Assembly (NCBI GenBank): GCA_964547015.1
Contig: CAZJKT010000010.1
Coordinates: 6,694-38,693 of the forward strand
Source of the DNA: an uncultured archaeon
GTDB taxonomy: Archaea > Aenigmatarchaeota > Aenigmatarchaeia > QMZS01
Length of the DNA stretch: 32,000 bases
Reading direction: 5' to 3'
A model generated the notes under the pieces. That model had not been told where the DNA came from and searched no databases. It saw only the letters and a list, made by a program, of their open reading frames with translations. Below are positions 1 to 29,420 of the stretch, in pieces (within the stretch, counting starts at the first letter, position 1; the number at the start of each line of letters is the position of its first letter). The translations under genes and the position numbers were made by a program.

Positions 1-3000
1 ACCGGGGACTATCCCGGAAGTGAGATAGTTGTAGGCAGCAATGACCAAAAGATATATATTCTTAACAGCACAGGCTCTCCGATAGGGGATTTTCTTGCAA
101 ATAATTTCATAAATGCTGTGGGTATTGGCGGCTTGGCAGAAAGCCCGGGTCTTGAAGCCGCTGCAGGCGGGGCAGATGGAACGGTATATATATTCAATTT
201 TGACTATTTTCCAACAAACCTTTCAATAGATGTCGGGAATAACGGAAATAGGGAATGGGTTTCGGGCCATGAAAAACTGAGAGGCTCTGAGGTTGCATCA
301 GGGGACAATATAACTGATGCAATAAACACCTATCTTGAGGCATGCTCTCCGGATGCATCAGGCAACTGCCAGATCCCTCTTGCATTTGAATCAAAGTTTA
401 AGGGAATGCTCAATATAGGCAGCCTATCGGTCTCGTACCTTTACAATGTTTCCGGGCTTTTCCAAAAAACACCTGCTTTTAGCTGGTCAAGGATAAGCAA
501 TATATCCGCGGGGGAGAGTGTAGGGTATTCTGTATACAATATTACTTTTTCCGGAATCCCTTCAGAAAATTTATCGGTATATTATCTGTTCGTCAACCAA
601 AGCGCTACGGCATGCGACTTTAACTTTGCAAAAAGAAGCGTTGCGGATATTGGGGGCTCAAAAGTGTGCGATATAACTTTAGAGCCTTTGTTTTTTGAGG
701 CGGGCGTTTCCATAAACTCAAGCGAGAGCTCTTTTTTGTTTTGGGATGACACAATGGAGTCGCAAGTCGCGATTCATTTGGATAACCTGACCGATTATTT
801 TACTGAATACGGCGAGCCTGACAGGTACACTCGGCAGGCAAATCTGTCCCTATATACGGATAACGGCTCTTTTTTGTGGGCAAGCGCTGATTGGGTGGTA
901 AATGACTCCCAAATTAAGGGTGAGGAATTTTTGAGGGTGTTTGACGGAGGAGAATGCGATATCACCCCGCCAGACGCTCAGGATGACTGCGATTCAGAAG
1001 CCCCGGAGTTTACCTACCAAAAAACCTGCAGCCAGTACAGCTTCTTTTCCTGCAAAAAGGAGACTGGGGACGGGATGTATTTCAGGTGGGCCCAGTCAAG
1101 CCTGTCTTCAGACGCGCCAACCTTATTTCAGGCAGGCGGATCATATAATTTAAGGCCGGAGCTATCCAATCTCTCGGCAATTCCAAATTCTTCCATTTGG
1201 GGGACCAATATCACTTTTTCGGCAGATTTATATGATGAAGAGTCTGATGGCGTCAATGCAACCCTGTGGATATACCATTCAGGAAATTGGCATAATGAAT
1301 CTCAAAAATCGGTTTTGGGCTCGATTTTGCAGTTTAATGTTACTTCAGCTAAGGAATGGGTAGGCGTTGCGCAGTATCTTTTTGAGTATTATGACTACAA
1401 CCTGACAGGCCTTTCCCAGATTTTCCACCTGCCACAAAACACCACAGCTAAAAACTTTACAATTGAAAAGCATAATTCAGAGGTAATCTATAGCCCTTTT
1501 TTGGGGACATTTGGAAATGCAACCTCAGTCTATCTCAATAACACAGCTTATCTTTCGGCATACATTAACGACACTGATTTGGGGGAGCCTGCAGTGGGGG
1601 CATCCTGCGCGCTATGGGTAGGGGAAATTTTGTCGGGAACAAACCTGACAAATTCAACAGGGCACTGCAATATTGTATTTTTACCAAACCAGTCCTATAG
1701 TGTCGGAGAAAAGAAATGGAAAATAGGCATTCTTGGGGATGGGGCATACAGCAACTCAAACTCAACAGAGCTTGACATTGAAATTCGCGGTGAATTGCAA
1801 ATATCCATTATAGGTGAGGAAGATATGGAATTTTATCGGGGAATGCCAAAAGAGTTTGGGGCGCAGCTTCAGGATGTTTACGGACGAACTCCAAACCTAA
1901 GCAATTACAACTGCTCTTTTAACCTTTCAGGCTCAGGAATTAATTCAAATATAGGCTCAAATATGACTTTGGAAGGAGCTTGCGCTATTTATTATGCGGC
2001 GGGATGCGGAGGGGTGTGCGCCTCGGTCGGTGAAAAGAACCTGTCAGTTCAGGCCTCCCGAATCGGGGCTGATGATTACTATGATATTTCAGGATTTTCG
2101 GCTCAGGATATGGTTCAGGCGGCCCTCAAAGATTCCCTTGTTGTGTCTGTCCATGAACCCGAAGACTTGCTTTATTACAAAGGCAGCCAAATCCCCCTCA
2201 ATGCAACTGCCGCCGACTCCTGCTCGGAAGTGGGCGATGTTATTACAGAATGGAGCCTTATTAACAAAAATTTTATCAATGTTACGGTAACAGACATTAG
2301 CGGGTCGGATAGGGAGGATTATCCGATAATTTTAGGCGCAAGCTTATTTTCCTCGGAGCAGTTTGATATCGGCTCATGGATTATAAACAACACGAAAATT
2401 ACCCTCCGGGGAGAGGAAATCCCATTTGAGATATACCCGTGGTCTGATGAGGGAGAATCTTTGCTAAACAATTCGCAGGAGAATATGTCTGAATATTCAA
2501 AAATAGTTTTTTTGGCGGATCTGCCCGCATCATCAAGCAAAACTTTTGAGATTGATTTGAGATATTACAATCCGGAATTCTACACCTACAATGTCCCTTA
2601 CAGCCTGAGGAATGCAGGATTTGGCTCAGGGAATTTTTCCTATTGGACGGAGTCTGCCTGCTCGAGTTCGGGATGCGGAGTTGAGGTTTCCGGTTCAGGG
2701 GGAATGCGCTTTGCAAACCTTTCTGCAGGAAACGGGCTGACTTCAATATTTCAGGGAATTCCAAACCACGCCGCCCATACAGGAGAGATTCAGATAAAAT
2801 ATAAGGCATGGGGGGAATTTGGGCATTCGCTCTACCCGGGAGAGCTGTATATCCAATCCGGGGATTATGTCTGCAACCTTACGCCAAGCATTCTGGAAAA
2901 TGCTGACGGCGAGGGATATGTTTCTCAGCCATCAAACTGGACTGTTGCGAACTGCGCAGATATTTCGCTCCGATCCGCCCAGAATATTTCAATTATCCTA

Positions 3001-6000
3001 AAAGACATGGGGGACGGCGGGGCTGACCCTTCAAACACAAATGCATTGATAGATTATATTTGCTTTGCGGATGCTTTTGGGGAATGCGTCAGTTTCCACT
3101 CGGGCCTGCCCGATTCCGTTGAAGTATCCTTAAAAAAGAGCCTTGGGAGCGCTGAGGAATACTTAATCGGAGGTTTTGAGGAGGTTGGCAGAAGGAAAGC
3201 TGTTGCTATTGCATCCAAGGATTATTACACTTCCGGATACAATTCTGCATATTTCAATATATCCGGCTTTGCAAAAATTGGAAATTTTACTGTAGATTCG
3301 GAATACTGCTCAAGATGGGGGGATGAGCCTTTTAGGCATATTTGCATGAGCGATGCGCACATTTCCCTTGAGGCTGAAGTTTTGGACAACTTCACGCTAT
3401 CCGGAATATATAATTACAGCGTGGGCTTTTATAATGAGTCCGGATTAATGGGCTCAAACTATACCGGTGTTGGGGGCATAGCCGAATATTTTACTTCAGT
3501 CGGAAATGAAGAAAATTATACCTATACTGCCAATATATCTTCAATGCCGGGATTGTTTTATGAGGCAGTTGAGCCAAAAGGACTGTCGCTTGATATAATA
3601 ATTGATAATGGAACAACTGCAGGGAGTATTGAGCTGAACAATACTTATGAAACCGCTTCCGGAGTTGCCCTAGATAATAACCATACTTTTATGGTTTACC
3701 TGAACCTGACAAATACAGGAAGCAGCGGAATGTATGCAATAAATATTTCGTCAACAGAGTCTGAGGGAATAATTATACCAAAGTCTTATTGCAGTCCCCT
3801 GCCTTCAGGAAACTCCTGCGGAAGTGAAATAAATATTACCGTTACCGTGGATGCGGATGCAACCCAACAGGTGATTGTTTTCAATGCTTCATGGAGAAAC
3901 GGGGATGGGAGCAACAGCTCTACTCATTCAAACCTGACAATCAGCATTCCTGAAAATAAAAGGGCGGTATTTTATGAAGAGAGCCTTTACCTGTCAGCCC
4001 CGATAACAGCCATTCGCTCAGCCAATTTTACCGTTGTAAATTACGGCAATGTCAACCTGACAGGTGTATATTATAATATATCCGGGACCGATGCCGGGGA
4101 GGTTGCCGATTGGAGCGCTTTTATGGAAAATGCCTCGAATATTGCAAAGAAAGGCGAGAGGGAGAATTATATTCGGTTTGAAGTTCCCGGAAATGACACA
4201 CTAATAGGTGTTTATTTTTTCAATATTACTGCGACGATTCCGGACTGTTCCGTGGATTGCTCGGTGACACTGCCTTTCACCTTAAATGTCACCTCGCTTG
4301 ACTGGTATATTACCCCGGACACAAATCTCTCTCGGGTTGTCGGCCTAAAAGAAGAGCTAAAAAAGCTTGGGGAGTTTAATTTGGTAAATGTAGCCCCCGG
4401 AACTTATAATTATAATGTCACTGTATCGCCTCAGGCGGGTACCTCGGCTGAATTTTTGGTTCTTAACAGGGCATCCGGACAAAAAAATATTTCGTTCTCA
4501 CTGCAAAACCAGGCTTCAATGACAATAAGCGTATATTATAATACCAGCGTTTCTCCGGAAAGCCTTGGCTCATATATCGGGAAGCACAATTACACAATAA
4601 GGGCGCGCAACCTCAATGAGAGCGCGGTTCCGCAATATGTTGACCTTCCGGTTTATTTTGAGATAATCAATTTTACTGTAGATATAATTTCGCCTGCAGA
4701 GGCTGAACCCATAGGGGGGGTTTATGAAAATGATACCTTAGAGATTATTGTTGAGGCGATTTCTGGAAACTCGCCGGTTTCTGAAGGTATGGCTTGGTCG
4801 GCTGAAGTGGGGGGAGTTGTTTGCTTAAATGAAGGGCAGGCCCAATATAATGCTACGAGCGAAAAATGGCTTATTGAATGTTTTGCCCCGGAAATTCCAT
4901 CAAACAGGATAAATAACAGCCTTACGGTTACAGGGATTTATTCCCGTGAAGGAGGAGAGGTTGAGCTCTCCGATATTGAAGAAAATGCGGTGATATATGA
5001 AGATGTGTTGCCGCCTTGGTTTAGCAGAATTGCCTCAAGCCATATCAATTACTTTTCAGATGCCCCGACGCAATCCTTTAGGGTGAATGTTACCGACAAC
5101 CTTAATATTTCCTCGGTCTGGGCAGAAATCTCGGCTCCAAGCGGCCCGAATATTTCTTTGGGTGAGGGAAACTTCACAAAAAGCCCGATAAGCGACCCGG
5201 ATTTCGAAAGCTATGAGTATATCTTTTCTTTTGCAAACCCTAATGAGGTTGGGGACTATGATATTTTTGTCTATGCAAATGATACCGGAGGCAGGGTTGG
5301 AATTGCCGGGGGGTGGTTTGAGGTATATCGCCCGATTACTGCCGCAGGAAACCTGTCAAACCCTAAAGGGGAGGGGATAAATGCGACTTTCAGGTTTTAT
5401 AGGGCAGGCCACAACAGGACTGACTTGTATTTTATGGGAAGCTACTCTGTTTTTGGCGGAGATTATAGCTGGGCGCTCCACAAAAGGAAATATGATGTGG
5501 TCGCGGAAATATTCGGCCACGAGATTGCGCTTTTGGATGCGGATTTCAATATAGAGCCAAATACCACAGATTCTCCGTTTAAGTTTGATAATTTCCCACA
5601 TAAAAACTCAGAGGATATGTCAAATATCCTTTTGCCTGATACTGCTAACCGGCAGAGCATTTTGCTTGCGGTTGTTGTTGAGTCCGCCCTAAACCTTTCG
5701 GGAGCTGAATTTAGCATAAATTATACAGAGGCTTTGGGGCAGGGGAGCTTTTCTGAAAACCTCCTTAAGGCGTTTTACTGCCAAAACTGGAATTACACAA
5801 CACGGTCTTGCTCTGAGGGGGAATTTAGCTATCTTGAAGGGGGATATGCGCCTGAAATTATCTCAAATATTTTTAATTTTTCCACAAATCACCTGTCAGC
5901 CTATGCTGTTGCGGAAAGCTCTTACCCTGATAAGTGGGGGGTTTCGCCTCCTGCCCCGGACCCCGGGACTTCCCCTGCGCCGGGAGGCTCTGCCCCAAGG

Positions 6001-7923
6001 GACACTTCTTCAGGCATTAGCGAGCCGAGGCCTTTTTGCGGCAACGGAATATGCGAAATAGGGGAGAATGCGGATAATTGCCCTCAGGACTGCTCAAGGG
6101 ACTTTCCGCTGGAAGTTGACACAAACCTTGAGGATGCGCGGATTTTCCTTGGGGAATCAAAAGAATACTGGATATCATTAGGCAACCTCCATGAGAGAGA
6201 TATAAATGCCACGATTTCATTGAGCGACAATATGGCGGGATTTATTTCAATGCAAGAAAGCCGGGTTCAGGTTCCAAAGGGAGGGCGCTTTAGGCTCAAC
6301 CTTTCGGTAACAGCCCCTCTAGATCAGGCGGTGGGGACATATGGAGGCTATGTAATTTTGGAGGCGGAAGGGAAGAAAAAATCCCTTCCAATAACACTAA
6401 GGCTTCTTGAAAGCGCAAAATTGATTTTAAAGATGGATGTTGAAATTCCCTCCCAGAAGATAAATGCCGGAAAGAACTTGAGTTTTGTGGTGAAGCTTGT
6501 GAATTTGGGTGACCGGGGGAATTTTGAGCTGAATATTGATTATCTTGTTATACGCCAGTCCGACAACAAGATTGTGAAGCAGTTCAACACTTCAGCTGAG
6601 CTTGAGTCGGCCGCTGTATTGCGGGAAACTCTTGAGCTTGGCCAATTAGAGACGGGATATTATAACCTTGAAGTATGGGCTAATTATAATGATAAGAGTA
6701 TTATGGATGTGGCAAGTTTTGAGATAGTCAAGCCATTATTCGAGTCCCCGCTTACGGTGGCTCTGCTTCTTTTGGCCCTTGCAATGGCGGTCCTTGTAGG
6801 GGGAACTTATATTTGGAACTATTACCGCGCATGGAAAAAGGAAAAGGAAAAGCAGGAGAGGTACTTATATCCTTTGGATTATAATGCAGTGCCAAAATCA
6901 GGGTTTAGGATTGGCAAATTTGCCGGTAGGGACAATGTGTTTTATTATGACCCGAGGGACCTCTCAACACATATTATTGCCGCAGGGGCGACAGGTTCAG
7001 GCAAATCGGTAACTGCCTCGGTTTTTGCCGAAGAGGCCCTTGACCGAAAGCTGCCGGTGATTGTATTTGACCCTACAGCCCAGTGGACAGGGTTTGTAAA
7101 GCCGCTCAAAGACAAAAACCTTCTGGCGCGATACAGGGCCTTTGGCATGAATGATTATGATATTAAGTCCTATCCGGGCCTAATCTATGACATAGACGAC
7201 CCTAACTTTAAGCTTGATGTTAAGAAGTTTATAAATCCGGGAGAGATTACCGTTTTCTGCCTTAACCGCCTAAAGCCGGGAGAATATGATATTGCAGTGA
7301 AAAACATAATCTCCACACTATTTTCGGAGAACTGGGAGGAGAGTACGGAACTCAAGGCAATATTTGTCTTTGACGAGGTGCACAGGCTCCTTGAGAAGTA
7401 TGGGGGTAGCGGAGGGTATACTGCGCTTGAGAAGGCCGCAAGGGAGTTTAGAAAGTGGGGGCTAGGTGTAATAATGTGCTCTCAGGTTCTTGCGGATTTC
7501 AAGGAAGCGATTGCAGGAAATGTATTGACTGAAGTCCAGCTCAACACAAAGTCTCTTGCGGATATTTCAAAAGTAAAGACAAAGTACGGGGAGAGGTATG
7601 CGGAAAGGATTACAAGAATGGGTGTGGGCGCGGGACTGTTCCAGCACCCGAAGTACAATTCAGGAAAGCCGTTTTTTGTAGAATTTAGGCCCACAAAGCA
7701 CGACCCGCATAAAATCACCGACCAGGAGCTCACGCTTTACAAGGAATATACTGAGAGGCTTGATAAGATTGGGGAAAAGATTGCCCAAATAAAATCCGGA
7801 GGGGGTTATGTTGAGAATTACGAGATTGACTATAAGCTTGCCTTAAATAAGCTTAAGAGAGGCAACTTCAGAATGTCTGAGATTTATATTTCCTCCCTTG
7901 AAAAGGCATTGGAGAGAGCATGA
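1..7923 (+). CDS. Giant cell-surface protein (5'-partial; continues upstream of the window) with one TM helix and a C-terminal cytoplasmic HerA/FtsK-superfamily (DUF87-type) P-loop ATPase domain
   Basis: Frame 1 has no stop from nt 1 up to the listed GTG at 118. The extra residues TGDYPGSEIVVGSNDQKIYILNSTGSPIGDF look like an FG-GAP/VCBS propeller blade, so the true start lies upstream. The ORF is uninterrupted to TGA at 7921-7923. N-x-S/T sequons are very dense. CARDB-like strands are present (MVYLNLTNTGSSGMYAINIS, FVVKLVNLGDRGNFELNIDY). A Pro-rich linker is followed by CGNGICEIGENADNCPQDC, then a TM helix at 6748-6816 and ATPase motifs. Confidence 0.9.
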   Translation, partial: TGDYPGSEIVVGSNDQKIYILNSTGSPIGDFLANNFINAVGIGGLAESPGLEAAAGGADGTVYIFNFDYFPTNLSIDVGNNGNREWVSGHEKLRGSEVASGDNITDAINTYLEACSPDASGNCQIPLAFESKFKGMLNIGSLSVSYLYNVSGLFQKTPAFSWSRISNISAGESVGYSVYNITFSGIPSENLSVYYLFVNQSATACDFNFAKRSVADIGGSKVCDITLEPLFFEAGVSINSSESSFLFWDDTMESQVAIHLDNLTDYFTEYGEPDRYTRQANLSLYTDNGSFLWASADWVVNDSQIKGEEFLRVFDGGECDITPPDAQDDCDSEAPEFTYQKTCSQYSFFSCKKETGDGMYFRWAQSSLSSDAPTLFQAGGSYNLRPELSNLSAIPNSSIWGTNITFSADLYDEESDGVNATLWIYHSGNWHNESQKSVLGSILQFNVTSAKEWVGVAQYLFEYYDYNLTGLSQIFHLPQNTTAKNFTIEKHNSEVIYSPFLGTFGNATSVYLNNTAYLSAYINDTDLGEPAVGASCALWVGEILSGTNLTNSTGHCNIVFLPNQSYSVGEKKWKIGILGDGAYSNSNSTELDIEIRGELQISIIGEEDMEFYRGMPKEFGAQLQDVYGRTPNLSNYNCSFNLSGSGINSNIGSNMTLEGACAIYYAAGCGGVCASVGEKNLSVQASRIGADDYYDISGFSAQDMVQAALKDSLVVSVHEPEDLLYYKGSQIPLNATAADSCSEVGDVITEWSLINKNFINVTVTDISGSDREDYPIILGASLFSSEQFDIGSWIINNTKITLRGEEIPFEIYPWSDEGESLLNNSQENMSEYSKIVFLADLPASSSKTFEIDLRYYNPEFYTYNVPYSLRNAGFGSGNFSYWTESACSSSGCGVEVSGSGGMRFANLSAGNGLTSIFQGIPNHAAHTGEIQIKYKAWGEFGHSLYPGELYIQSGDYVCNLTPSILENADGEGYVSQPSNWTVANCADISLRSAQNISIILKDMGDGGADPSNTNALIDYICFADAFGECVSFHSGLPDSVEVSLKKSLGSAEEYLIGGFEEVGRRKAVAIASKDYYTSGYNSAYFNISGFAKIGNFTVDSEYCSRWGDEPFRHICMSDAHISLEAEVLDNFTLSGIYNYSVGFYNESGLMGSNYTGVGGIAEYFTSVGNEENYTYTANISSMPGLFYEAVEPKGLSLDIIIDNGTTAGSIELNNTYETASGVALDNNHTFMVYLNLTNTGSSGMYAINISSTESEGIIIPKSYCSPLPSGNSCGSEINITVTVDADATQQVIVFNASWRNGDGSNSSTHSNLTISIPENKRAVFYEESLYLSAPITAIRSANFTVVNYGNVNLTGVYYNISGTDAGEVADWSAFMENASNIAKKGERENYIRFEVPGNDTLIGVYFFNITATIPDCSVDCSVTLPFTLNVTSLDWYITPDTNLSRVVGLKEELKKLGEFNLVNVAPGTYNYNVTVSPQAGTSAEFLVLNRASGQKNISFSLQNQASMTISVYYNTSVSPESLGSYIGKHNYTIRARNLNESAVPQYVDLPVYFEIINFTVDIISPAEAEPIGGVYENDTLEIIVEAISGNSPVSEGMAWSAEVGGVVCLNEGQAQYNATSEKWLIECFAPEIPSNRINNSLTVTGIYSREGGEVELSDIEENAVIYEDVLPPWFSRIASSHINYFSDAPTQSFRVNVTDNLNISSVWAEISAPSGPNISLGEGNFTKSPISDPDFESYEYIFSFANPNEVGDYDIFVYANDTGGRVGIAGGWFEVYRPITAAGNLSNPKGEGINATFRFYRAGHNRTDLYFMGSYSVFGGDYSWALHKRKYDVVAEIFGHEIALLDADFNIEPNTTDSPFKFDNFPHKNSEDMSNILLPDTANRQSILLAVVVESALNLSGAEFSINYTEALGQGSFSENLLKAFYCQNWNYTTRSCSEGEFSYLEGGYAPEIISNIFNFSTNHLSAYAVAESSYPDKWGVSPPAPDPGTSPAPGGSAPRDTSSGISEPRPFCGNGICEIGENADNCPQDCSRDFPLEVDTNLEDARIFLGESKEYWISLGNLHERDINATISLSDNMAGFISMQESRVQVPKGGRFRLNLSVTAPLDQAVGTYGGYVILEAEGKKKSLPITLRLLESAKLILKMDVEIPSQKINAGKNLSFVVKLVNLGDRGNFELNIDYLVIRQSDNKIVKQFNTSAELESAAVLRETLELGQLETGYYNLEVWANYNDKSIMDVASFEIVKPLFESPLTVALLLLALAMAVLVGGTYIWNYYRAWKKEKEKQERYLYPLDYNAVPKSGFRIGKFAGRDNVFYYDPRDLSTHIIAAGATGSGKSVTASVFAEEALDRKLPVIVFDPTAQWTGFVKPLKDKNLLARYRAFGMNDYDIKSYPGLIYDIDDPNFKLDVKKFINPGEITVFCLNRLKPGEYDIAVKNIISTLFSENWEESTELKAIFVFDEVHRLLEKYGGSGGYTALEKAAREFRKWGLGVIMCSQVLADFKEAIAGNVLTEVQLNTKSLADISKVKTKYGERYAERITRMGVGAGLFQHPKYNSGKPFFVEFRPTKHDPHKITDQELTLYKEYTERLDKIGEKIAQIKSGGGYVENYEIDYKLALNKLKRGNFRMSEIYISSLEKALERA
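6748..6816 (+). other. Single predicted transmembrane helix of the giant protein (PLTVALLLLALAMAVLVGGTYIW)
   Basis: A 23-residue hydrophobic stretch is followed by the basic RAWKKEKEKQER. By the positive-inside rule the downstream ATPase domain sits in the cytoplasm. Confidence 0.75.
6940..7710 (+). other. HerA/FtsK-like ATPase domain inside the giant ORF
   Basis: Walker A is GATGSGKS (6985-7008) and is followed by PVIVFDPTAQW. Walker B is AIFVFDEVH (about 7357-7383). AREFRKWGLGVIMCSQVLADF resembles the GRKyG...sQrP motif of HerA/DUF87 ATPases. Motif order and spacing match that family. Confidence 0.7.
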
Positions 7924-9546: not shown

Positions 9547-9675
9547 TTATGTTTTGTAAAAATATGGGTAACCGAATTTAGGAGGAAAAACCTTGGAACT
9601 GTGCAGTTAAGTAAAATTTGGGATTTTGCGGCAATATTTTAGTAAAATTATGAAATATTTTAGATGTGGGGAAAC

Positions 9676-12600
9676 TTATTTTCCCGCTTTTTTGATTTCC
9701 TGCTTAAGAGTCTTTTTCTGGTAAATTTTGCGGTTGGCAATTATAAGGACTAACCCAATAGCCAGAAGGAAGGCAATCCAAGGTATCTTTGAGCTTTCTT
9801 CGCAAAGTATAGGCACAGTTTTTTCGCTGATAAGGAGCGTCTTAAATTCAGATTTGTAATAGGCTTTTAGAGTGTATTCCCCATCATCGCAAAGGGGCAG
9901 AGGGATTTTAATTAAGGATTGTTTTGGAACTTCGTCAATCTCAATAATATCTGCATAGATGAGGTCTCTTGAAGGGTTTGGACCTGAGAATTCTATTTCG
10001 ATGTAGCCGTCTTTGTTATAGGGTATCAATATAAAATCAAGGAGCATATTTTCGCGGCAGGAATACTCCAGCTTATCAAGGCTCATTATAATTTTTGGGG
10101 GGCGTTCTCGGTAAGTTATATTGACGGTTATATTTTGGCCCGAAGCTATTTCGGGTATCGGAATATCTATTCCGGTATCGGTCCTTATAAAATCATGGCT
10201 GCACTCCAGAATATCCTTAATTTCCAGAGGCAAGGTCGCGTTAAAATATGCCCTTCTTGCAAAATTTTGGATGGTTAATTGGGTGTTGAAGGTTATTATG
10301 CCCTCGCCAACCTCAATTATTTCTGTCTTTCTGCCGACTTCAAGTATTGGGGGCGTTGTAAGTTCTAGAATATAAGTGGAGCGGGCATTTTGCGCAATGT
10401 TAACTATAAAGTTCACATATTGGGCCTCTTCCTCGTGGGGTATTTTTGAAGTTTCTCCGTTAACAGACTCAAGGACATGAACACTAAGCCGGTCATCATA
10501 AACTCCGAAAGAATAGCGTTCCCTTACCTGCCTTTCGTTAGGGTTTATTATATTTATGGCTTTTATCCATTTTACCGGGCTGCCGACTATGGCTTTTAGC
10601 GGTTCCCAGGGCCCTTCCCTAATTTCAAGGTCCTGCAGCCGCCAGTATTCTCTTCTTACTTGGGTCACAATGTCCTCGAAGAAATATTTGTCCTCATAAT
10701 AATTATACCCGTAGGCCCTGGTGATGATAGTGTTTGTGCCAAAAGGAAGCTCGGAGTAGTAATTGATGTTTATTGAGTCCCCCTCATAAAAGGTCAGAGG
10801 ATTTAGAGGGTCGGACTTTAATTGGACAATATATTCGCGGTATTCGGTTTCCCCTAATTTTTTTATCCCGTTGTCTTTTACCCCAAATAGGATATTTTCG
10901 GGTATTTCGCCTCTGACGGATATTAATTTTATGCTGTAAATGTCAAGCTTTGAATTGAGGGGAAGATATATGAAAAAGATCGGGTCCCTAAGGCCTTTTC
11001 CTCCGGTATCCACAACTCTGAAAGTTGCATTATTGAAGTGGAGCGACTCTGTGAGAAGAAAATCGTTTGCGTCTTTCCTTATTATTTCAAGAACAGGCAA
11101 AGGAGCGATTCCCCCCCCACCGCCGCCCCCTCCGGGAGCCGCTGAATAGATCCCCGGAATCGTGAGCTCACGGGTAAGTATTTTTTGAGCGGGCGTCCCG
11201 CTTTTAGTTTTCCCGATGGCTGTTAGTCCGAATTGGTAGGTTTTTTGCTCATCTTCTTTGCCGCTTGATAGAATATAGGTGATTTGCGCAATATCATTTT
11301 GCTGCATCGAGAGATTGCTTAGATATATCAGGCTTCTGCCGGGCATTGAGCTTACGGAAGTTATATTAATTTCAGCCCTTCCGCTGCCGTTGGCAATATA
11401 TGCCTTTAGCCCAGACAGTGTCCAGATTTCAGAATAGCTGATATTGAAGAGAATGGAATCCGCTTGAAGATTTGCGTGGCCGATATGCCTCATTGTATCT
11501 GTTACTTCAAGGCTTCTGCCGGATTCGCCATTGCTTAATATATCTATTCGCTTATCAGCCGAAAAATCCATCTGGTAGAGCGTTGGCATATCCATATAGC
11601 CCTGCAAAATCCCGCGATAGTAGGAGCTGCCCCACTTTACTTCCCAGTCATATGCCGCGGAGTAATATATTGCTTTATTTATCGGGTCTGTAGGCAATAC
11701 TGCCGCAGGAATTCCGGTGTCATACTCATCGGTGTAGACCACTTCGCCGGGCAGGATTTCCCGATTTGGGTTTCCGGAAAGTGAAGAGGTGTTTGAATCA
11801 ACTTCATAGAGCGCCCAGCTGTGCACGCGGTATATCTGGCCGTAAGCGATATTTTTCATAAATCCCCGCACCATCCAATTTGCTTTGGGGGTAATCTCAA
11901 CGCCCTGCCTGAGGCTGCCTCTTGAAAAGCGGTCGGCAAATGAAATCCCGCTAAATGAGGCGGATTGGGTATAGTCCACGAGGGTTTCTTGGGAATCTAT
12001 ATCCGCTGAAAGAATGCCTGAATCATAATTTATGTCCGGAGCTATTGATGCGTAAAGGGTTATGTTTGCGTAAGTCCTGAGGTTTCCTGTCCATACTGCT
12101 TTATCAAAATGCCCGTTTGAATTGGAGTCCAAAATTTCAATGCTTCCGGAACTTGAGGTAGCATTAATAATGTTCATTGAGTCCCCCCCTTCAAAAACAT
12201 CCCTGTTTGCGATAAAGTTTGCGGTTATACTATTGAGGTTTTCTGAGGCATTGAGGTGAATAATAAATTCAAGGGTGTTATTTTCAGGGCCGAGGTCATT
12301 TCCGCCGATGAGGTTACGGTAGCCCATCCTGATGCTTATTGATTTATTCTGGGAGAATGTGTAGGTTGTGGCTTCATTGCTTTCATTTGTTGAAATATAG
12401 AGCCTTGTGCGATCCCCGGAATATGGGGAGGCGGCAACTGCGGCATAAGCTGTGGAATTTATGAGGTTTGTGCGGTTTAGAGTTGAAAGCTCAATTACCA
12501 CATTTTGCAAAACATCCATGGTATTTGCAAGCTCCACCTCTATTGACCCCTCATTTGAAGAGCTTATCAATGTTCCGTTATAATGGCTATAGCTTAGGCT

Positions 12601-27041: not shown

Positions 27042-27761
27042 ATGCTCTACTTAATCGGAATCGGTCTTTGGGATGAGGGAGATATTACCCTAAAAGGGCT
27101 TGAAGCGGCCAGAATGTGCCGAAAGCTCTATTTGGAGAGCTACACAAGCCTTTGGGGCGGAAACCTTGAAAAATTAGGGCTAAATCCCGAAATTATCCAA
27201 AGGCGGGGAATGGAGGATGATATGCAGAAATTGATTGATGAGGCAAAAGAGGAGGATATCGGGATTTTGGTGCCCGGAGATGCCCTTATGGCTACTACCC
27301 ACTCGGCTTTGGCCCTTGAAGCCAGAAATCAGGGCGTTGGTATAAAAATAATCCATGCCGCATCAATTATCTCGGCTTTGGGGGAGACGGGCCTTCAGAT
27401 TTACAAATTCGGCAAAATCGCCACAATCCCCTATCTTGAGACCGATACCCCTTATCAAATCCTTGAGGGCAACCTTAAGTGCGGCGCCCATACTCTGTTT
27501 TTGCTGGATATCACGCCTGAGCGCCTAATGTCTTGCAAAGAAGGACTAAAAAAGCTCCTTGAAATGGAAGAGCGGGGCAAATTAGGGCTGATTTCTGAGG
27601 ACTCTGAGGTTGTTGTCTTTTGCAGGGCGGGCAGTTCCGAGCAACTTCTTAAATTCGGCAAAATAAGGGATTTTCTTGATTTTGGATGCACTCTTTGCGT
27701 GATAATCGCGCCGGGCAAGCTTCACTTCGCCGAGAAAGAGTTTTTGGAGTCTTTAAGGTAA
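27042..27761 (+). CDS. dphB: Diphthine synthase (diphthamide biosynthesis methyltransferase)
   Basis: MLYLIGIGLWDEGDITLKGLEAARMC..LYLESYTS...VPGDALMATTH...IHAASI...GLQIYKFGK...HTLFLLD...PGKLHFAEKE are the characteristic DphB/Dph5 blocks. Confidence 0.93.
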   Translation: MLYLIGIGLWDEGDITLKGLEAARMCRKLYLESYTSLWGGNLEKLGLNPEIIQRRGMEDDMQKLIDEAKEEDIGILVPGDALMATTHSALALEARNQGVGIKIIHAASIISALGETGLQIYKFGKIATIPYLETDTPYQILEGNLKCGAHTLFLLDITPERLMSCKEGLKKLLEMEERGKLGLISEDSEVVVFCRAGSSEQLLKFGKIRDFLDFGCTLCVIIAPGKLHFAEKEFLESLR

Positions 27762-27793
27762 CCTTAAGTTTATTTCCTCCCTACTTAATTTAG

Positions 27794-28041
27794 GCCCCTG
27801 TAGTCTAGCTCGGTCCAGGATATCGCCCTTTCGAGCCGGCATTTCTTTTAAAAAGAGATCCGGGCACTCCCAAGAAACAAGTTTCAAGGGAAGGGAAAGG
27901 TTTGAGGCTTTCGAGCCGATGACAAGAAGACAGGCGGAGACCCGGGTGAAGACTTTTCTTGCGAAGAAAAGTCCTCAACGTCAAAAGAAGCAGATTCCTG
28001 CTTCGCAGAAGGAATAGGGTATTCAAATCCCGGCAGGGGCA
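27794..28041 (+). tRNA. tRNA-Glu(UUC) gene interrupted by three modelled introns (anticodon loop 80 nt, variable region 18 nt, T-loop 75 nt)
   Basis: The acceptor stem GCCCCTG (27794-27800) pairs with CAGGGGC (28034-28040), followed by discriminator A. The exon model is 27794-27827, 27908-27923, 27942-27947 and 28023-28041. It gives a 75-nt cloverleaf with D stem GTCT/GGAT, anticodon loop CTTTCGA and T arm CCGGG-TTCAAAT-CCCGG. Caveat: there is one C:C mismatch (30:40) in the anticodon stem. Confidence 0.7.
27945..28008 (+). repeat. Conserved intron module, copy 1 (inside the T-loop intron of tRNA-Glu)
   Basis: GGTGAAGACTTTTCTTGCGAAGAAAAGTCCTCAACGTCAAAAGAAGCAGATTCCTGCTTCGCAG shares identical blocks of 12, 18 and 17 nt with 28991-29056. 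Confidence 0.9.
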
Positions 28042-28053
28042 AAACCTAAAAGG

Positions 28054-28068
28054 CTATTTAAGATTAAT
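28054..28068 (+). promoter_or_regulatory. TATA-like element CTATTTAAGATTAAT upstream of the cold-shock gene
   Basis: It lies 13-27 nt upstream of ATG 28081. The 12-mer TTTAAGATTAAT recurs at 31337-31348 upstream of the cyclophilin gene. Confidence 0.4.
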
Positions 28069-28080
28069 AGAGAATTATAA

Positions 28081-28272
28081 ATGGACGGAACAGTAAAGTT
28101 CTTCAATGCAATGAAGAATTTCGGATTTATCAGCGGCTCGGACGGAAAGGATTACTTTGTCCATTCAAGCGCGCTGAAAGAGGGAACTCGGCTTAATGAA
28201 GGCGATAAGGTGACCTTTGAGCCCACTCAGGGCGACAAAGGGATTAAGGCCGAAAAAGTCGAGAAAGTTTAG
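28081..28272 (+). CDS. csp: Cold-shock domain protein (CspA family)
   Basis: GTVKFFNAMKNFGFI is RNP1-like and DYFVHSS is RNP2-like. The 63-aa size fits. Confidence 0.92.
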   Translation: MDGTVKFFNAMKNFGFISGSDGKDYFVHSSALKEGTRLNEGDKVTFEPTQGDKGIKAEKVEKV

Positions 28273-28316
28273 AAATTATAGTTCTAGTGCGGAAATATAG
28301 TTTTGAGACAAAGTCA

Positions 28317-28349
28317 GTTTAGTTTTGGTTTTTGGGTGTTTTTTTGAGG
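28317..28349 (+). terminator. T-rich tract downstream of csp
   Basis: GTTTAGTTTTGGTTTTTGGGTGTTTTTTTGAGG contains T5 and T7 runs. Confidence 0.35.
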
Positions 28350-28380
28350 CAAAAGGTATGAATTATCATTTTTCAGTATT

Positions 28381-28722
28381 ATGGCTGAAGAATGTTTGGG
28401 CGGCGGTTTAGATGGATTGGATGTCTTCAATTATATGAATGCTTTTTGGGAAGTTTTTGATAATTACCATAGATTGGGCAAAACTCGCGAAAGAATTGCC
28501 CTAGAACTTTATCATGCGGGCGCTCCGATAACTTCTGTCTATCTCCAAGGTAAGTTGGATATAATGCAGAGCATCTCGCAGACCAATCTGGATATATTGT
28601 TGCGTTCCGGATTAATAACCCGGGAAAAAATCCTGAAACTCGCGCCTATGAATATAGCCTTCTTCCGGAAGCTAGGCAAATCCTTGATGGCTATTTTGCG
28701 CTTGCAGAGTCCAGCCGAGTAA
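28381..28722 (+). CDS. Hypothetical protein (113 aa)
   Basis: An ATG-initiated ORF in an otherwise empty gap, with no motif I recognise. Confidence 0.5.
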   Translation: MAEECLGGGLDGLDVFNYMNAFWEVFDNYHRLGKTRERIALELYHAGAPITSVYLQGKLDIMQSISQTNLDILLRSGLITREKILKLAPMNIAFFRKLGKSLMAILRLQSPAE

Positions 28723-28800
28723 AAATCTCGGAAATGGGCGAGCTCAGGCGCGCGGTTGTTGATTAATTTACCTTTTGCAAACTAAATTATGCCGAGGTGG

Positions 28801-29115
28801 CGGAGCGGTCTATCTATACCTCCCTAAAAAGAGGATGGGACCATACGCGGCTGGCTTGAGGTCATCCCTTTTCTTGAAAGAAAAGGTCTGACAACCCCAA
28901 AAGAACAGATTCGCATATCATGTTTGCTTCGCAAACGGGGCGATTCTATTGGGGGTAAAACAGGCAACCAGTTTCCCGCAAGGGAGCGCAGGTGAAGACT
29001 TTCTTTCCCGAAAGAAAGTCCTCAACGTCAAAGAAAGGGAGATTCCTGCTTCGCAGGTATATTGCCCTTTTAGTTGGGAAGAAGTCCTCTGCGAATTCAA
29101 ATCCTGCCCTCGGCG
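28801..29115 (+). tRNA. tRNA-Ser(UGA) gene interrupted by three modelled introns (D-loop about 32 nt, anticodon loop 96 nt, T-loop 103 nt)
   Basis: The acceptor stem GCCGAGG pairs with CCTCGGC, followed by discriminator G. The exon model is 28801-28822, 28855-28870, 28967-28993 and 29097-29115. It gives an 84-nt class-II tRNA with D arm GCG-GAGCGGTCTAA-CGC. The anticodon arm is GCTGG-CTTGAGA-CCAGT, with TGA at 28867-28869. The long variable arm is TTCCCGCAAGGGAGC and the T arm is GCAGG-TTCAAAT-CCTGC. Confidence 0.8.
28991..29056 (+). repeat. Conserved intron module, copy 2 (inside the T-loop intron of tRNA-Ser)
   Basis: GGTGAAGACTTTCTTTCCCGAAAGAAAGTCCTCAACGTCAAAGAAAGGGAGATTCCTGCTTCGCAG. See copy 1 at 27945-28008. 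Confidence 0.9.
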
Positions 29116-29123
29116 TATTATCC

Positions 29124-29420
29124 TTAGTCCCCTACTTCAAAACTCCCACCTTCAATCCTCAAAGCAAGCCCCTCGATTATCGCCTTTGCCACTTTCTTTC
29201 GGGCGCTTCGAAGAACCCGATGAAAAGTCGGCTGGGATATGCCCATCGCTTCTGCCCCCTCTTCTTGCGACTTCTCCAAAAAATCCACGTGCCGAATCGC
29301 CTCCCATTCCTCGACATTCAGGACAACTTCGCCAATATCGCGCATTCTGACCCCTGCCGGCTTGAAATAATTAATCTCAGGATAATTTGAAACCCGCCGA
29401 AAGCACCGCCGCCGTGGCAT
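29124..29420 (-). CDS. DUF134 (UPF0251) family predicted DNA-binding protein
   Basis: MPRRRCFRRVSNYPEINYFKPAGVRMRDIGEVVLNVEEWEAIRHVDFLEKSQEEGAEAMGISQPTFHRVLRSARKKVAKAIIEGLALRIEGG matches the family pattern as I remember it. The start is taken at the internal Met (29420), not the ORF-track 29447. Confidence 0.85.
   Translation of the reverse strand: MPRRRCFRRVSNYPEINYFKPAGVRMRDIGEVVLNVEEWEAIRHVDFLEKSQEEGAEAMGISQPTFHRVLRSARKKVAKAIIEGLALRIEGGSFEVGD

Follow-up and report, generated by a model that had tools for sequence, protein, structure and literature searches.

Why should two different transfer RNA (tRNA) genes of one archaeon carry introns that open with the same structured module, and what keeps that module in shape while its sequence changes? 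The question is raised by a 32-kb window (the whole stretch of DNA analysed here) on a contig assigned to a member of the Candidatus Aenigmatarchaeota (DPANN), its diphthine synthase, Dph5 (27042-27761), being 86% identical to a protein from a Ca. Aenigmatarchaeota metagenome-assembled genome (MAG). The part from 27700 to 29300 was read directly, and tRNA genes and introns were delineated by hand. On the + strand it holds tRNA-Glu(UUC) (27794-28041; exons 27794-27833, 27932-27946 and 28022-28041) with two introns, and tRNA-Ser(UGA) (28791-29115; exons 28791-28812, 28845-28860, 28967-28992 and 29096-29115), which has a long variable arm, with three. Probably the module forms the conserved 5' domain of a tRNA intron family that is spliced by protein at bulge-helix-bulge (BHB) motifs and that has proliferated and been turned over in Ca. 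Aenigmatarchaeota; this judgement covers its role at the splice site and the reality of a three-way constraint on its sequence, and leaves an RNA triplex to be weighed separately. The three-way covariation of tracts is the new result, whereas the proliferation of introns is of a kind already described for the Thermoproteales.

The spliced sequences are recognized by ARAGORN as perfect cloverleaves, tRNA-Glu(ttc) and tRNA-Ser(tga). On the raw 32 kb the same program returned zero tRNAs, and an Rfam scan of the raw window in gathering and E-value modes gave neither a tRNA nor a known RNA family. ARAGORN and the Rfam tRNA model miss both genes because each is interrupted by two or three introns.

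The module was first seen in the two T-loop introns, of 75 nt in tRNA-Glu (27947-28021, from the splicing of the gene and its BHB reading) and 103 nt in tRNA-Ser (28993-29095). They start at the same tRNA position, as an earlier sequence-only reading had stated, and share a module of 62-64 nt. A placement at 53/54 or at 54/55 is possible, and the BHB geometry prefers 53/54. Exact matches bear out the three identical blocks that this reading had listed, of 12 nt (27945-27956 and 28991-29002), 18 nt (27968-27985 and 29015-29032) and 17 nt (27992-28008 and 29040-29056); the 18-mer and the 17-mer occur twice each in the 32 kb at up to three mismatches, for chance expectations of 0.03 and 0.09. The variable spacer that it gave as 4-7 nt exists, but the gap between the second and third blocks is really 6 and 7 nt. 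Both hairpins are fully paired, with the C:G pair offset by one step between the Glu and Ser copies, again as proposed, though the arms are longer than it had supposed: they extend outward (TGAAGAC...GTCCTCA) to 14 bp with a single conserved A.C mismatch.

In detail, the Glu copy, of type A (27947-28008, +), consists of a 5' arm (27947-27960), a loop (27961-27963) and a 3' arm (27964-27977), within which lie a pyrimidine tract Y (CTTTTCTT, 27953-27960) and a purine tract R (AAGAAAAG, 27964-27971). A linker (27972-27982), a third tract R' (AAAAGAA, 27983-27989, read from the sequence) and a second hairpin (CCTGC-TTC-GCAG, 27997-28008) follow. The Ser copy, also of type A (28993-29057, +), has its 5' arm at 28993-29006, the loop CCCG at 29007-29010 and its 3' arm at 29011-29024, with Y (CTTTCTTT) at 28999-29006 and R (AAAGAAAG) at 29011-29018; linker (29019-29029), R' (AAAGAAA, 29030-29036, then GGG) and second hairpin (CCTGC-TTC-GCAGG, 29045-29057) succeed one another as before. 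A global alignment of the two modules is identical at 58 of 68 positions. Differences are confined to the hairpin arms, the loop, the purine tract that follows the linker and the bases immediately 3' of that tract; the copies agree throughout the lower stem, the remainder of the linker and the second hairpin, with 0 changes in about 40 flanking module bases.

A related module, type B, occupies the anticodon-loop intron of tRNA-Ser (28861-28966, 106 nt, position 37/38, +). Its outer stem pairs GTCA (28861-28864) with TGAC (28889-28892) and encloses Y (CCTTTTCTT, 28867-28875) and R (AAGAAAAGG, 28878-28886); the linker (TCTGACAACCCC, 28887-28898), R' (AAAAGAA, 28899-28905) and a second hairpin (TTTGC-TTC-GCAAA, 28923-28935) follow. 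The sequence-only reading had noticed this hairpin but placed it at 28877-28896 instead of 28867-28886. The second hairpin, of the form xxGC-UUC-GCxx, covaries too, occurring as CCTGC/GCAGG, CCGC/GCGG, GTCGC/GCGAC and TTTGC/GCAAA. In the type A lower stem (27947-27953 with 27971-27977; 28993-28999 with 29018-29024), which forms GAAGAC/GTCCTC or AAAGAC/GTCCTT, the A.C mismatch is found in every copy seen; on the antisense strand it turns into a G.U wobble.

The differences among copies follow a rule that involves three tracts and not two. R' lies 9-12 nt downstream of the hairpin and complements the pyrimidine arm in parallel orientation, which makes this purine tract a mirror of the purine arm. 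It has an A facing every U-A pair and a G facing every internal C-G pair; the basal C-G pair or pairs are an exception, as C, not G, faces them in R'. A pyrimidine arm of the form C T^a C T^b (C T^c) is accordingly matched by an R' of the form C A^a G A^b (G A^c). Arm and R' read CTTTTCTT and CAAAAGAA in the window's Glu copy, CTTTCTTT and CAAAGAAA in its Ser copy, and, in the related loci L088, L057 and L004, CCTTCTTTCTT and CCAAGAAAGAA, CTTTTTCT and CAAAAAGA, and CTTTCTTTTT and CAAAGAAAAA, respectively.

Permutation supports the rule. The set comprised 39 distinct arm/tract pairs, with hairpins chosen blind to the positions of G and with antisense and coding-region false positives included. 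Perfect matches between arm and R' were found in 25 of the 39, compared with 6.8 after permutation (maximum 15), and comprise 13 distinct, perfectly matched cores; none of 20000 permutations exceeded the mean score. Single pairs were counted over 27 distinct rows in a gapless, base-anchored alignment, used because differences in run length misalign the tracts in MAFFT with RNAalifold, which recovered the hairpin core only when applied to 32 modules. Parallel pairs between arm and R' fit in 94.4% of cells, with 23 double-change cells against 8.5±2.2 in shuffled data (reached in 0 of 500 shuffles), and hairpin pairs are formed in 92.2% of cells, with 36 double-change cells against 10.2±2.3 (0 of 500; double changes at 7 of 9 pairs). 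Slid registers of the parallel pairs fit in 57-77% of cells and gave 1-4 double-change cells. The hairpin covariation proposed by the sequence-only reading is thereby upheld in a formal test. Two other relations between the tracts were tried and rejected: a direct repeat of R in R' fits worse than the mirror in 17 of 24 asymmetric cases, and ordinary antiparallel pairing of arm and R' is no better than chance (76.9%, a value that 410 of 500 shuffles reach, against 77.5% in shuffled data).

The match is also kept at an orthologous site. Six orthologous Glu 53/54 introns (the window, L004, L098, L005, L007 and L088) have five different cores, and each core has its matching R'. The parallel, mirror-like register means that R' cannot be held by ordinary RNA base pairing. 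To our knowledge, no copying process produces a mirror repeat, so that the relation must be selected. Three-way covariation of this kind is, at the level of sequence, the signature of a three-stranded structure under selection. The view that the module is selected as an RNA is supported as far as the hairpin goes, but it had overlooked the third covarying tract, because of which selection may act on the DNA and not on the sense RNA.

What the hairpin itself does is suggested by its position at the splice site. The standard geometry, applied here, places 4 exon nt, 2 exon nt, the cut, 1 intron nt and a helix at one end, and 4 intron nt, 2 intron nt and the cut at the other. In every copy the module starts 1-2 nt past the 5' splice site (exon|T-GAAGAC, exon|T-AAAGAC, exon|A-TGAAGAC or exon|G-TCAT), and its Y/R hairpin occupies the place of the intron-side helix h' of the BHB motif. 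At its 3' end each intron has 4 nt that are complementary to the exon there (helix H) and then 2 more nt. Helix H is CTTT/GAAG with one G.U for the Glu 37/38 intron (bulges CG|A and AC|A), CTTG/CAGG with one G.U for Ser 37/38, a perfect CGCA/TGCG for Ser 53/54 (bulges GG|T and AA|T), a relaxed CCCG/AGGG of 3 bp and a G.A for Glu 53/54 (bulges GG|T and TA|T), and CGTG/CACG in L071. These four window introns thus have two 3-nt bulges around a 4-bp helix and would be cut after the second base of each bulge. The D-loop intron of tRNA-Ser (28813-28844, 32 nt, +) has a small hairpin (CCTC...GAGG) and no third tract.

The 3' ends differ from copy to copy. The Ser T-loop intron ends with AAGTCCTC-TGCG-AA (29082-29095), which can pair with the intron start GAAGACTT (h') and with the exon CGCA (the 4-bp H); its exon-exon helix h is absent or a single wobble, which makes it a relaxed motif of HBh' type. 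In this intron, and in L071, L078 and L090, a second AAGTC(C/T)TC just 5' of the 3' splice site could pair with the intron start and form a canonical h'. In most copies the 3' strand of the hairpin is not contiguous with the central helix, and the motif closes a multi-branch loop. Known BHB motifs, canonical hBHBh' or relaxed HBh' (PMC5829648), likewise have two 3-nt bulges cut after the second base and a 4-bp helix of exon and intron, and occur in introns at 37/38 and at non-canonical sites. They differ in that h' is here, in most copies, a self-contained hairpin whose 3' strand is not contiguous with the central helix; with linker, R', second hairpin and variable sequence in between, the whole would be a junction and not a simple stem. 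The suggestion of a splicing-endonuclease scaffold made in the sequence-only reading agrees with a hairpin that replaces h' 1-2 nt after the 5' cut in every copy. A gene for the endonuclease EndA was not found in the window, and related contigs were not searched for it.

On this geometry the 5' domain would be portable, a new insertion requiring that only about six 3'-terminal bases be matched to the new exon. If so, this would account for the finding of one and the same 5' domain in the D-loop, the anticodon loop and the T-loop among about 12 tRNA species. The distribution of copies was followed by a genome scan, which took one genome per species and the type A linker, and by a metagenome scan; both used exact linker patterns and thus under-sample divergent subfamilies. 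The former gave 43 pattern matches, about 36 of them due to chance, and the latter 51, about 35 of them due to chance; the chance matches lack the hairpin, lie almost all in bacterial DNA and were discarded. Genome-scan matches with the hairpin occur only in Aenigmatarchaeota MAGs, namely in L009 (Ser(GCU), D-loop), L032, L038 (Asp(GUC), T-loop) and L045 (the same locus as L004). Further copies with the hairpin came from the metagenome scan, in Arg(UCU), Ala(CGC), Ala(GGC), Lys(CUU), Trp(CCA), Val(CAC), Leu and Glu genes. Altogether, the module is found in about 12 tRNA species (Glu, Ser(UGA), Ser(GCU), Asp, Arg, two of Ala, Lys, Trp, Val, Leu and Thr), at D-loop, 37/38 and 53/54 sites and at T-loop sites following TTCAAA or TTCGAA, with inspection by eye as the basis for tRNA identities beyond the window and for most BHB readings. 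One MAG, E05-068, has at least five type A copies over three contigs (L045, L032 and L038).

The two types share sites and replace one another. Type A follows the pattern T|GAAGAC-Y-loop-R-GTCCTC-AACGTC-R'..., and type B the pattern G|TCAT-CC-Y-loop-R-GG-TCTGAC-AAC-CC-R'.... In the closest relative, L004 (the one with 86% Dph5 identity), type A is found in the Glu T-loop, Ser anticodon and Ser T-loop introns. Type B occurs in the Ser anticodon intron of the window, the Ser D-loop intron of L004 and the Glu T-loop introns of L005 and L007. The anticodon site of tRNA-Ser is therefore of type B in the window but of type A in L004. In Ser(UGA), the T-loop and D-loop introns are missing from L098 and the D-loop intron from L005, and three different 5' hairpin variants are found at the Glu 53/54 site among relatives. 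A type A copy with the same second hairpin, including AGGTTCCTGCTTCGCAG, reaches as far as L105, in which Dph5 is only 57% identical. A mobile intron core, one of the possibilities named in the sequence-only reading, is thus the right description at the level of the family, with copies in many tRNA genes, at several positions and in related genomes.

Further elements are found in some copies. Three of type A have a structured insertion of about 46 nt at one point within the 3' arm of the hairpin (AAAGAA[...]AGTCCTC), in L004 at 5191-5236 (Ser T-loop intron), in L032 at about 473-518 and in L090 at about 1125-1170, ending in ...CGTCTG(A/C)A(A/G)GACGC(A/G)GG. It could be a nested element or an extra domain; a nested BHB intron was considered and rejected, as no 4-bp H helix was found at its borders by eye. 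Farther 3', many full-length copies have the conserved elements ATATCA(CC) and GAATTTGGCTAA (L071, L078, L090, L032, L098, L005 and L007), which neither of the window's T-loop introns has.

Similar introns in different tRNA species and positions are known from the Thermoproteales, where they were regarded as transposed (Fujishima et al. 2010, Mol Biol Evol 27:2233, as cited in PMC4033280). As far as that account goes, those introns are alike in occurring several to a gene, in having no open reading frame (ORF), in being spliced by a protein endonuclease and in showing similar sequences across tRNA species and positions; they differ from the present ones, which belong to a DPANN lineage, the Aenigmatarchaeota, and have a structured 5' domain abutting the 5' splice site and a three-way covarying tract. 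In the literature searched, no report of such a splice-site 5' domain or of such a tract was found for the Thermoproteales introns, nor anything on tRNA-intron transposition for Aenigmarchaeota.

Which structure is under selection is harder to say. In a triplex of the purine type, the third purine strand lies antiparallel to the duplex's purine strand, with A over A-T(U) and G over G-C, and we know of no other pairing scheme that demands a mirror repeat. The module combines a homopyrimidine/homopurine Watson-Crick hairpin with a third tract that mirrors the purine tract, and a single strand that reads pyrimidine, purine, mirror purine has the class II intrastrand triplex motif, its complement being class IV (PMC4666352). 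Judged by their sequence, Y, R and R' carry an intrastrand triplex code, the sense strand being of class II and the complement of class IV. The three tracts would form it from the hairpin and a fold-back third strand, in the order Y-R-R'. The PIT/BoxC elements, described within classes I-IV of such motifs (Hoyne and Maher 2000; Holder et al. 2015, PMC4666352), share the class II order, the class IV complement and the character of a dispersed repeat family. They differ in being intergenic, G/C-rich, bacterial and studied as DNA, whereas the module is A/T-rich, lies within archaeal tRNA introns and is necessarily transcribed; nor did the bacterial definition involve covariation evidence of this kind.

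The reading we prefer, tentatively and at somewhat less than an even chance, is that the triplex would be formed in cis by the pre-tRNA or the intron RNA and would hold the splice-site hairpin as a rigid rod. In favour of the sense RNA, the module has a fixed position at the splice site, its tracts co-evolve in situ within the resident Glu T-loop intron, and some arms contain G.U wobbles. Intrastrand triplexes of the pyrimidine type do form in RNA (PMC4666352). For purine-motif triplexes that involve RNA, a review cites experimental evidence both for and against (PMC7583470), and an antiparallel GAA RNA triplex, aided by Mg2+, has been described by molecular dynamics (PMC9631886). Known RNA major-groove triple helices (the telomerase pseudoknot, the MALAT1/PAN ENE, and the SAM-II and preQ1 riboswitches; PMC7583470) resemble the proposed structure in their fold-back strand and in triples that keep the register of the helix. 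They use a U-rich pyrimidine third strand parallel to the purine strand, whereas a module acting as sense RNA would need an antiparallel purine third strand over 7-11 consecutive layers. No example of a natural all-RNA purine-motif triple helix was found in the literature searched. It is possible, though on balance doubtful, that the module is a natural intrastrand triplex with three co-evolving strands, be it an all-RNA purine-motif (A.A-U / G.G-C) helix of 7-11 layers at the splice site or a DNA triplex driving the spread of introns.

Several points weigh against this set of readings. Because the copies share descent, fewer independent events lie behind them than the cell counts given above suggest; the safer measure is the set of 13 distinct matched cores. 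According to one report, RNA strands do not enter purine-motif triplexes (Semerad and Maher 1994, as cited in PMC4666352). Formation of the 7-bp lower stem would leave only about 5 free nt for bringing R' back up to the Y/R tract. R' retains A at four internal G.U wobbles and thus tracks the pyrimidine arm, not the purine arm. Finally, the older, orthologous Glu 37/38 intron matches R' perfectly in 2 of 6 lineages and imperfectly in the other 4, among them the window (mirror match 0.67); as this intron still requires splicing, the match is not indispensable for splicing.

The window copy of that intron (27834-27931, 98 nt, +) has a degraded module, with a hairpin at 27835-27865 and a purine tract (AAGAAA) at 27872-27877, and close to its 3' end a hairpin GGC-TTTCGA-GCC (27906-27917). 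Its orthologues in L004, L005 and L007 retain the hairpins via compensatory changes. The anticodon-loop region 27828-27838 is repeated exactly (11 nt, CTTTCGAGCCG) at 27908-27918, where the repeat forms the loop of the hairpin near the 3' end. In relatives the same hairpin has other loops and compensatory stems (GGCC-AAAT-CGGCC, GGCC-GAAC-AGGCC and GGCG-GTAAAA-CGCC).

A serious rival, to which we give about one chance in a few, is that the triplex code works on DNA. The sense (non-template) strand would take up the class II fold, or H-DNA would form at the R/R' mirror repeat, while the RNA needs the hairpin alone; such a structure would stall polymerases and provoke recombination and so lead to the spread and exchange of introns among tRNA genes. 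We know of no mechanism that turns breaks of this kind into spliceable insertions at new tRNA positions, and destabilising essential, highly transcribed tRNA genes should be counter-selected. A homopurine mirror repeat is nonetheless the defining requirement of H-DNA, the order Y-R-R' is the class II motif, purine-motif triplexes are well established for DNA and reported absent in RNA, and dispersed intrastrand-triplex repeats (BoxC/PIT) occur in bacteria and are tied to genomic instability (PMC4666352). The gain, loss and replacement of introns at orthologous sites fit this explanation, as does the decay of the R' match in the old, fixed Glu intron that must still be spliced. Against it, the module is fixed in position and orientation at the 5' splice site, and the match persists across five variants in the six orthologous Glu 53/54 introns, which looks like the outcome of selection on resident copies and not only on transposing ones.

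It is unlikely that R' pairs in Watson-Crick fashion with another partner (a downstream pyrimidine element, the hairpin loop in a pseudoknot, or another RNA) and that the mirror relation is a by-product. Candidate partners exist: GAATTTGGCTAA can pair in many full-length copies with GTCAAA (the linker end and the start of R'), the window copies can pair GAAGCAG/CTGCTTC and GAAAGGG/CCCTTTT, and the best complementary runs measure 7.1 against 5.5 in shuffled targets (0 of 300). Their place and register vary by copy, however, and several are the Y arm of the next intron. No such partner predicts that the G of R' tracks the C of the arm, as seen in 13 variants, and direct antiparallel pairing of R' with the arm stays at the level of chance. 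The hairpin loop and the bases right after R' tend to be complementary (CCC/GGG, CTC/GAG, TCC/GGA, GC/GC), for instance at 29007-29010 with 29037-29039, and the complementary run averages 1.79 against 1.33 in permuted data (0 of 5000), a signal that comes mostly from close relatives. A loop-to-tail pseudoknot is possible but was set aside on this ground and as geometrically hard to reconcile with an in-register third strand.

Less likely still is a functional antisense transcript, with a Hoogsteen pyrimidine tract, pyrimidine arm and purine arm (class IV) in U.A-U / C+.G-C order, a fold that RNA is known to adopt. On that strand the A.C mismatch of type A becomes G.U, giving an antisense hairpin of 14-16 uninterrupted pairs, and RNA does form pyrimidine-type intrastrand triplexes (PMC4666352). 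A DUF134 gene (29124-29345, -) terminates 9 nt from the 3' end of tRNA-Ser and is directed into it; read-through would yield antisense RNA across the intron modules. Yet convergent genes are not general at other loci, the G.U wobbles within the Y/R tract of several copies would become A.C mismatches, and it is the sense RNA that accounts for the position at the 5' splice site and the fixed orientation.

There is little to recommend the idea that splicing releases a trans-acting small RNA, for example a guide of the C/D-box or H/ACA kind or a template RNA like that of telomerase. Some archaeal tRNA introns, those of tRNA-Trp among them, encode C/D guides and so harbor, like the present ones, a conserved RNA element, and the GUGAAGA that opens the intron differs from a C box by one mismatch. 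No RUGAUGA is found in the five window introns, however, no CUGA in either T-loop intron, and no Rfam family at gathering score, which excludes the C/D guide that the sequence-only reading had considered and leaves an H/ACA guide equally without match. What is conserved here is a splice-site hairpin with low-complexity purine and pyrimidine runs, which are not guide-like. The type B module (28862-28942) resembles the ciliate telomerase RNA (RF00025; 24.4 bits, E 0.35) in stem II, GUC and CAACCCCAAAA, the last two recalling the template-boundary element and template; this is probably chance, the score being far under the 52-bit threshold and the hit absent from the whole-window scan at E<=0.5. 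Finally, a recent neutral duplication or gene conversion, with similarity but no function, has hardly any likelihood left and is refuted by the further copies: the blocks outside the variable tracts are 100% identical and the genes are 1 kb apart, but copies occur in about 12 tRNA species, several MAGs and lineages down to 57% Dph5 identity, so that the local duplication by which the sequence-only reading would have been undone does not hold, the differences between the window copies are coordinated changes in three tracts, and the covariation statistics speak against neutrality.

Around the two genes, the order Pth2, Dph5, tRNA-Glu and cold-shock protein (Csp) is conserved among relatives. 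Elsewhere, an ORF of 2601 amino acids (118-7923, +) occupies the first quarter of the window, and a bacterial ribosomal protein L20 leader suggested by Rfam at 9603-9701 (+) is probably due to chance (29.5 bits against a gathering score of 58.7, E 0.048).

How archaeal tRNA introns without an ORF multiply and jump has been a question since their 'transposition' was inferred in the Thermoproteales. The DPANN archaea provide a second, independent lineage, with a family that is young, abundant and well defined, in which a modular 5' domain sets the 5' splice site and a short 3' end is adapted to each exon. The three-way covariation leads to two testable hypotheses, an RNA triplex at the splice site or a DNA triplex that promotes mobility, and the latter, if true, would give the first mechanistic handle on the movement of these introns. 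As standard finders overlook such genes, the tRNA complements of DPANN genomes of this kind are under-called.

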